Below are positions 35,739 through 37,718 of a DNA stretch of 64,000 bases, piece by piece (within the stretch, counting starts at the first letter, position 1; the number at the start of each line of letters is the position of its first letter). Location: sequence record PQ666540; one strand, written 5' to 3'. The stretch comes from Shigella phage sb2. The position numbers and the translations under genes are program-made. Below the pieces are notes generated by a model that made no database searches, was not told the DNA's origin, and saw nothing but the letters and a program-made list of their open reading frames with translations.

Positions 35739-37718
35739 ATGACTTTATTATCTCCGGGCATTGAGCTCAAAGAAACTACGGTTCAAAGCACCGTGGTTAA
35801 TAACTCTACTGGTACAGCAGCTTTGGCCGGTAAATTCCAGTGGGGTCCTGCTTTTCAAATTAAACAGGTTACAAATGAAGTAGATTTAGTTAATACTTTT
35901 GGTCAACCTACAGCTGAAACTGCTGACTATTTTATGTCTGCAATGAATTTCTTACAATACGGAAATGATTTGCGAGTTGTGCGTGCTGTCGATAGAGATA
36001 CCGCTAAAAACTCATCTCCGATTGCCGGTAATATTGAATACACTATTTCTACCCCAGGTAGTAACTACGCGGTTGGAGATAAAATCACGGTTAAGTATGT
36101 TTCAGAAGATGTTGAAACATAATGTAAAGTTACCGAAGTAGATGCTGATGGAAAAATTAAGAAAATTAATATTCCTACCGCAAAAATTATCGCTAAAGCA
36201 AAAGAAGTAGGCGAATATCCAGCATTAGGTTCTAATTGGACCGCGGAAATTTCTTCGTCTTCCTCTGGTTTAGCTGCAGTAATAACTCTTGGAAAAATTA
36301 TTACTGATTCTGGTATTTTATTAGCTGAAATTGAAAATGCCGAAGCTGCTATGACAGCTGTTGACTTTCAGGCAAATCTCGAAAAATATGGAATTCCTGG
36401 AGTAGTAGCTCTTTATCCGGGCGAGTTGGGCGATAAAATCGAAATTGAAATCGTATCTAAAGCTGACTACGCAAAAGGTGCTTCTGCATTACTCCCAATT
36501 TATCCAGGCGGCGGCACACGCGCATCTACTGCCAAAGCGGTGTTTGGATATGGACCACAAACTGATTCACAGTACGCTATCATAGTTCGTCGCAATGATG
36601 CTATTGTTCAAAGCGTTGTTCTTTCAACGAAGCGTGGTGAAAAAGATATTTACGATAGTAACATCTATATTGACGACTTTTTCGCAAAAGGTGGTTCAGA
36701 ATATATTTTCGCAACTGCACAAAACTGGCCAGAAGGCTTCTCTGGAATTTTAACTCTGTCTGGTGGATTATCATCAAATGCTGAAGTAACAGCAGGAGAT
36801 TTGATGGAAGCTTGGGACTTCTTTGCTGACCGCGAATCTGTTGATGTTCAGTTGTTTATTGCGGGTTCTTGCGCCGGCGAATCTTTAGAAACAGCATCTA
36901 CTGTCCAAAAACACGTCGTTTCAATTGGTGATGCTCGCCAAGATTGCTTAGTACTGTGCTCGCCACCGCGTGAAACTGTAGTTGGAATTCCTGTAACTCG
37001 TGCTGTTGATAACTTAGTCAACTGGAGAACCGCAGCAGGTTCATACACTGATAATAACTTTAATATCAGTTCAACTTATGCAGCAATTGATGGTAACTAC
37101 AAGTATCAGTATGACAAATATAATGATGTGAATCGTTGGGTTCCATTAGCAGCTGATATTGCTGGTTTATGCGCGAGAACCGATAACGTTTCTCAGACTT
37201 GGATGTCTCCAGCTGGTTATAATCGTGGTCAGATTCTTAACGTTATTAAACTTGCTATTGAAACTCGCCAGGCGCAGCGCGATCGTTTATATCAAGAAGC
37301 TATCAACCCAGTAACTGGCACAGGTGGTGATGGTTACGTATTGTATGGTGATAAAACAGCTACTTCTGTTCCTTCTCCATTTGATCGTATTAACGTTCGT
37401 CGTCTGTTTAATATGTTGAAAACGAATATCGGACGTAGTTCAAAATATCGTTTGTTCGAATTAAACAACGCGTTTACTCGTTCATCATTCCGCACAGAAA
37501 CTGCCCAATACTTACAGGGAATTAAAGCTCTCGGTGGAATTTATGAATATCGTGTAGTTTGAGATACAACAAATAACACTCCGTCAGTAATTGATAGAAA
37601 TGAGTTTGTTGCAACATTCTACATCCAACCGGCTAGTAGCATTAACTACATAACCTTGAACTTCGTAGCAACTGCTACAGGTGCAGATTTCGATGAGTTA
37701 ACTGGTCTTGCAGGTTAA
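35739..37718 (+). CDS. 18: gp18 tail sheath protein; 659-codon frame interrupted by in-frame TAA (36120..36122) and TGA (37560..37562)
   Basis: Single frame from ATG 35739 to TAA 37716..37718 equals T4 gp18 length; ORF track splits it into 35739..36122 and 36351..37562; C-terminus ...ELTGLAG. Confidence 0.9.

Follow-up and report, generated by a model that had tools for sequence, protein, structure and literature searches.

The contractile tail sheath of phage T4 is made of gp18, and 138 sheath subunits are needed per virion. The shortened form gp18M (residues 1–510) does not polymerise, and the C-terminal region 510–659 is required (PMC3004832). The Shigella phages to which the present sequence belongs came from lake water in Kolkata and were deposited as ADG1 (PQ666539), AKR2 (PQ666540), CDR3 (PQ666541) and TMC4 (PQ666542); a Twist enzymatic, PCR-amplified library was sequenced on a NovaSeq 6000, assembled de novo with SKESA and annotated with Prokka (PMC11993411). 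The window, i.e., the whole stretch of DNA that we analysed, comprises 64,000 nucleotides of the AKR2 record (Shigella phage sb2), and the other three records are referred to below as sb1 (ADG1), sb3 (CDR3) and sb4 (TMC4).

The window is Tequatrovirus DNA of the pSs-1 group and is ~97–98% identical to many Escherichia and Shigella phages. The nearest genomes are pSs-1 (NC_025829) and UGKSEcP1 (OV877085), with gene 18 identities of 97–98% at the nucleotide level and 99% at the protein level. Its first position corresponds to ~64,012–64,225 in pSs-1, sb1, sb3 and sb4, and the window looks like bases 64,001–128,000 of a collinear genome. As in pSs-1, a pair of Alt-like ADP-ribosyltransferase paralogues lies in tandem (59939–61996 and 62000–64000, both on the minus strand), with ~41% mutual identity. 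The hoc gene (47361–48779, minus strand) encodes a protein with 85% identity to pSs-1 hoc, compared with 98–100% for most structural proteins, and on this protein comparison it appears to be a divergent allele of the decoration protein.

Gene 18 of the window has the length, domains and surroundings of a T4-type sheath gene, and its frame is interrupted twice:

35739..37718, plus strand: gene 18, contractile tail sheath, 659 codons and a terminal TAA, with two in-frame stops inside
36120..36122, plus strand: internal TAA at codon 128, within Gp18 domain I (residues 96–188), next base T
37560..37562, plus strand: internal TGA at codon 608, within the sheath C-terminal domain (residues 544–645), next base G

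Translation of 35739–37718 on the plus strand gives 660 codons, i.e., 659 sense positions and the terminal TAA, with exactly two internal stops. The preliminary description had read the stretch from the ATG at 35739 to the TAA at 37716..37718 as a 659-codon T4-type gp18 with a TAA at codon 128 and a TGA at codon 608, and translation bears out both the frame and the two stops. Once both stops are masked, the conceptual translation hits each of the five T4-type sheath families of Pfam (Gp18_domIII_N, Gp18_dom_I, Phage_sheath_domII, Phage_sheath_1 and Phage_sheath_1C) above their gathering thresholds (E values of 2e-15 to 2.5e-38), and it aligns with pSs-1 gp18 over 659 residues without gaps at 99.1% identity (tblastn), which likewise agrees with the identification as sheath. 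The neighbours are gp17 (large terminase, 33875..35707) and gp19 (tail tube, 38484..38975), in T4 order. The domain architecture and the position between gp17 and gp19 are thus those of a T4-type sheath gene, and an uninterrupted frame of ~659 codons is absent from the sequence as written. In the ORF list the gene appears, as had been said of it, just as a 127-aa piece (35739..36122) and a 403-aa piece (36351..37562).

The spacer between genes 18 and 19 (37719–38483) occurs in two forms, one of 116 bp in 19 loci and one of 752–765 bp in the window and nine loci. The long form may be a mobile insertion. The spacer of the window contains two features:

37727–37740, plus strand: perfect GGGGCTTCGGCCCC hairpin with a UUCG tetraloop, 9 bases past the gene 18 stop, with no T-run after it
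37759..38376, plus strand: ORF of 205 aa, matching phrog_5104 (unknown function), no Pfam match

The hairpin probably acts in mRNA stability or processing rather than as a classical terminator. The 205-aa ORF was considered in relation to the stops in gene 18 and is unrelated to them.

Each internal stop differs from the relatives by a single base. Codon-by-codon comparison identified GAA>TAA at codon 128, a single G>T at 36120, and TGC>TGA at codon 608, a single C>A at 37562; together with the gapless alignment, this upholds the earlier view that the stops are point changes and not indels. The same description had proposed that both codons be checked for sense in relatives. Among the 22 full-length gene 18 comparators, codon 128 is GAA or GAG (Glu) in 21, the exception being sb1 (PQ666539) with TAA, and codon 608 is TGC (Cys) in all 22. 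The codon-608 site is C in all five IMG/VR contigs found by exact-pattern search, and the codon-128 site is G in two further contigs from one metagenome scan. By megablast, the 80 bases around each stop are identical to those of many relatives but for the single changed base. No other carrier of the codon-608 TGA was found by 80-base megablast, IMG/VR exact patterns, the metagenome scan or the 22 comparators, and the codon-128 TAA was found outside the window in sb1 alone by megablast, IMG/VR patterns, the one metagenome scan and the 22 comparators. A 5.7-kb metagenome contig (IMGVR_UViG_3300030021_000023) carries a lone in-frame GAA>TAA at codon 520 of gene 18, which would show that such nonsense calls arise sporadically in assemblies.

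The interruptions appear to be very young. Gene 18 of the window differs from that of the nearest relative, UGKSEcP1, by 34 synonymous, 2 missense and 2 nonsense changes; the whole frame, also 3' of the first stop, was therefore under strong purifying selection until very recently. An old pseudogene was rejected on account of this selection along the entire frame. Rescue by an internal restart was also rejected, since the ATG at 36351 (codon 205) is the earliest in-frame start 3' of the TAA. Re-initiation there would not rescue the sheath; residues 128–204 would be lost and the 52 C-terminal residues would be missing as before.

The stops in gene 18 belong to a substitution class that is in excess across the window. 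We projected six relatives onto the window coordinates, limited the comparison to the first 50 kb, and defined a window-specific site as one at which the window departs from a base common to all four genomes of a good-quality panel (pSs-1, sb3, Sfk20 and ECp13). This stretch contains 418 window-specific substitutions, distributed as follows:

G:C>T:A class: 21 synonymous, 35 missense, 3 nonsense, 10 intergenic
All other classes together: 251 synonymous, 67 missense, 0 nonsense, 31 intergenic

The non-synonymous share is 64% for G:C>T:A versus 21% for the other classes (Fisher odds ratio 6.8, p=1.3e-10), and all three nonsense codons of the window, two in gene 18 and one in denV, fall in the G:C>T:A class. 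If G:C>T:A changes struck these coding sequences at random, 79% of them would be missense, 12% nonsense and 9% synonymous. On this basis, a mixture estimate with two components puts the number of unselected G:C>T:A changes at ~36, from which 4.4 nonsense changes are predicted and 3 are observed; the sheath stops are therefore an expected by-product of the class. Judged by its coding spectrum, the G:C>T:A excess is apparently one that escaped filtering by purifying selection, and this would explain the nonsense codons. The C>A share of private changes is 16.5% in the window, 4–7% in pSs-1, Sfk20 and sb3, and 21–26% in sb1 and sb4. On the plus strand, the changes of the window are 38 G>T and 31 C>A, so the two strands contribute about equally. 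A context analysis, shared sites included, found no clear sequence motif at the G:C>T:A sites. An oxidative-hotspot context was considered and is not established: the 5'-G of GG is weakly enriched in the window and sb1 (p~0.04) and shows no enrichment in sb4.

The third in-frame stop of the window, beside the two in gene 18, is codon 107 of denV, and it lies within one of several local patches of the same class:

2957..3373, minus strand: denV (endonuclease V), with an in-frame TGA at codon 107 (3055..3053), TGC>TGA, shared by sb1
2970–3091, minus strand: G:C>T:A patch in denV, seven changes in ~120 bp
40965..41043, plus strand: G>T patch in gp68, four missense changes, partly common to sb1 and sb4
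45706..45748, plus strand: G:C>T:A patch at the 3' end of gene 24 and in the following spacer, four changes, partly in sb1 and sb4

The changes of the denV patch are D95Y, W100C, D103Y, C107*, A110D, Q115K and T135N. Clustering of the G:C>T:A sites is evident overall: 15 pairs of neighbours lie no more than 50 bp apart, versus 4.5 expected. A search for same-frame adjacent ORFs and tblastn with all pSs-1 coding sequences revealed no broken genes besides gene 18 and denV. About 75 other pSs-1 coding sequences are intact in the window, which therefore holds three in-frame stops, of two stop types, in ~77 genes.

The same defect is found, at a much higher load, in two of the sister records. The substitution-type in-frame stops in the first 50 kb were counted as follows:

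sb1 (PQ666539, ADG1): 19, of which 17 are G:C>T:A
sb4 (PQ666542, TMC4): 24, with an A:T>T:A excess too
sb3 (PQ666541, CDR3), Sfk20 and pSs-1: 0
Window: 3, all G:C>T:A

The stops of sb1 lie in gp3, 5, 6, 9, 10, 12, 16, 17 (two), 18, 22 (two) and 23, and those of sb1 and sb4 together split gp3, 5, 6, 7, 9, 10, 12–18, 22, 23, 24 and others; in the GenBank annotations of both records, many essential genes are in pieces. The TAA at gp18 codon 128 and the TGA at denV codon 107 are identical in sb1, whose annotation shows a sheath fragment of 127 aa and an endonuclease V cut short. Because 19–24 stops in essential genes are incompatible with viability, genomes bearing them cannot be viable as written, and the stops of sb1 and sb4 would be errors at the level of the record; both look like assemblies of low accuracy. 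The published ORF counts are 285 for ADG1, 254 for AKR2, 255 for CDR3 and 291 for TMC4 (PMC11993411). The high counts of ADG1 and TMC4 mirror their load of split genes.

The sister records also bear on the possibility that editing or corruption of the sequence, later than its deposition, created the stops, or at any rate the codon-608 stop that is private to the window. Such a change would agree with the lack of any public record with the codon-608 TGA (megablast, IMG/VR, the 22 comparators and product look-ups) and with the absence of the exact 127-aa and 403-aa gene 18 products from the gene-position index. Nonetheless, we consider it highly improbable: two of the three stops, the TAA at codon 128 and the TGA in denV, also occur in the independent GenBank record of sb1, where both genes are annotated in pieces, and the change at codon 608 belongs to the background G:C>T:A excess.

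The tRNA genes of the window lie in one cluster:

9542..10373, minus strand: ten tRNA genes (ARAGORN), for Arg, Asn, Tyr, Met(cat), Thr, Ser, Pro, Gly, Leu and Gln

Their anticodons are tct, gtt, gta, cat, tgt, tga, tgg, tcc, taa and ttg. Neither tta (ochre-reading) nor tca (opal-reading) is present among the ten tRNAs that ARAGORN detected in the window, in agreement with what had been reported from the letters. The same set of ten is annotated in sb1, sb3, sb4 and Sfk20; it is larger by two than that of T4, which is not known to encode the Asn and Tyr tRNAs. Gene 18 nonsense mutants are a classical tool of T4 laboratory work, and the tRNA scan covered 64 kb of a genome of ~165 kb. Both points speak for a conditional-lethal stock with ochre and opal mutations, kept on a suppressor host or by a suppressor tRNA encoded elsewhere in the genome. 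Against such a stock stand the ten-tRNA cluster without a suppressor anticodon and the combination of an ochre and an opal codon in one gene with an opal codon in denV, for which two suppressors would be needed. Moreover, the relatives are environmental isolates and not laboratory mutants, and the stops fit the window-wide unselected class and not targeted mutations. We thus regard a suppressor-dependent stock as extremely improbable.

Programmed recoding can be given next to no credence. Full-length sheath could in principle be produced by read-through, by selenocysteine insertion at the Cys>TGA sites, or by a reassigned code. Some phages do reassign stop codons, and both TGAs replace cysteine (gp18 C608 and denV C107), as in Cys/Sec pairs; however, TGC>TGA is among the few routes by which a G:C>T:A change leads to a stop. 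The stops are also not conserved, with the codon-608 TGA in none of the 22 comparators and the codon-128 TAA in sb1 alone. Since the flanking 80 bases match the relatives but for the changed base, no recoding signal has evolved around the stops. The predicted RNA fold downstream of the three stops is no better than that of shuffled sequences (z = -1.1, -0.2 and +1.1), and the Rfam scan gave no match, SECIS included. A TAA followed by T, as at codon 128, is a strong terminator context in E. coli, and gene 18 itself terminates with TAA. A genome with a reassigned stop codon is not what we observe, as there is no suppressor anticodon and the in-frame stops number only three, of two types, in ~77 genes. 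The marks of programmed read-through, namely conserved stops, a downstream RNA element and sequence specific to the stop-bearing genomes, are likewise absent.

It is very likely that the stops in gene 18 are erroneous G:C>T:A calls in the deposited record, i.e., a sequencing, assembly or DNA-damage artefact, and not biology. We favour this reading because of the excess of the class, its freedom from selection, the match between predicted and observed nonsense counts, and the same defect in the sister records. Of the three options in the preliminary description, sequencing or assembly error is the one that gained support; a suppressor-dependent or defective stock and stop-codon read-through were left without any. 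Under the artefact reading, the deposited segment of a pSs-1-like Tequatrovirus would contain G:C>T:A calls that are wrong at a few dozen sites. At two of these sites the error would have turned Glu128 (GAA) and Cys608 (TGC) of the sheath gene into TAA and TGA, and at a third it would have turned Cys107 of denV into TGA. In the phage proper, gene 18 would almost certainly be intact, the errors having arisen during sequence production. We infer a technical cause for the G:C>T:A errors, and the candidate sources are oxidation of the DNA, with 8-oxoG being read as T, miscalled bases where the effective depth was low, and a chimeric consensus of mixed reads. G>T/C>A is a known oxidative-damage signature of library preparation (Costello et al. 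2013, PMC3616734).

Several observations count against the artefact reading. The unselected G:C>T:A alleles recur among the window, sb1 and sb4, with pairwise overlaps of 18, 10 and 14 versus <1 expected, and simple random error does not predict such recurrence at the same sites. Damage-type artefacts, which normally occur at low allele fraction, should also be missing from a consensus built at normal depth. Two of the three nonsense changes would fall in one and the same gene with a probability of ~6%; this was counted against an artefact as well, yet it is unremarkable. The recurrence could possibly come about through position-specific miscalls at low effective depth, through a k-mer-scale chimeric consensus from a shared, mixed read pool, or through read bleed between libraries. 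Simple sharing of reads across libraries was examined and is unsupported: identical haplotype blocks are no longer at shared G:C>T:A sites.

A rival reading takes the nonsense alleles to be real molecules. Complementation of late proteins in trans is established in T4 genetics, and defective genomes could have been trans-complemented by co-infecting relatives in an unpurified, mixed T4-like population, with the nonsense alleles at high frequency and the assembler stitching alleles together. Among the three same-lake assemblies, the unselected alleles are shared at 37% and 30%, versus 39% and 41% for natural alleles, and this sharing is far beyond chance. The study paper mentions neither sequencing depth nor plaque purification (PMC11993411), and its silence on the latter is compatible with a mixed population. 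However, sb1 and sb4 would need 19–24 lethal alleles within 50 kb, every one of them in the majority, and the low mutation rate of T4 together with the dynamics of recessive lethals cannot yield such a load in a few passages. The alleles are, in addition, almost all G:C>T:A and so resemble damage or miscalling rather than replication error, and sb3, from the same study, has none. We therefore regard real alleles in a mixed population as very unlikely. A form of this idea in which the G>T nonsense alleles are genuine and frequent in a co-infecting swarm of T4-like phages from a single lake sample, with heavily mutated genomes, none viable by itself, persisting via trans-complementation and fine-scale recombination, seems to us very unlikely too. 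If true, the swarm would explain why the same 'lethal' alleles occur in three assemblies on different local haplotypes.

With erroneous calls as the preferred reading, the stops would have no biological significance, and we see nothing that points to recoding, to suppression or to a phage lacking its sheath. The window, PQ666539 and PQ666542 should instead be flagged for data quality on account of consensus-level G:C>T:A errors. Such errors break essential genes into pieces and raise the number of ORFs, and studies of pseudogenes or comparisons among genomes would be misled by them. A single substitution class that escapes purifying selection offers a quick, read-free test for flawed records.

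Compared with known systems, the gene in the window shares with T4 gp18 the length of 659 codons, the five Pfam sheath domains and the position between gp17 and gp19, but it has stops at Glu128 and Cys608, and among the relatives either stop is found in sb1 alone. It resembles the conditional-lethal mutants of T4 gene 18 in having point nonsense codons in an otherwise intact sheath gene. Those mutants of laboratory T4, however, carry a single, typically amber codon and are grown on suppressor hosts, whereas the window, from an environmental pSs-1-like phage, combines ochre and opal codons in one gene, has no suppressor tRNA and carries these stops as part of a wider unselected substitution class. 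With 8-oxoG artefacts, the window shares the substitution class, its occurrence on both strands about equally and its disregard of coding constraints. The differences are that classical 8-oxoG artefacts stay at low allele fraction, whereas those of the window are in the consensus and recur at sites of the sister assemblies, and that the library here was fragmented enzymatically and not by acoustic shearing. Relative to sb1 and sb4, the load of the window is much lighter (3 versus 19 and 24 stops), its codon-608 stop is private and it has no A:T>T:A excess, but all three records belong to the same phage group, are collinear, and have the same non-synonymous G:C>T:A excess with stops in essential genes.
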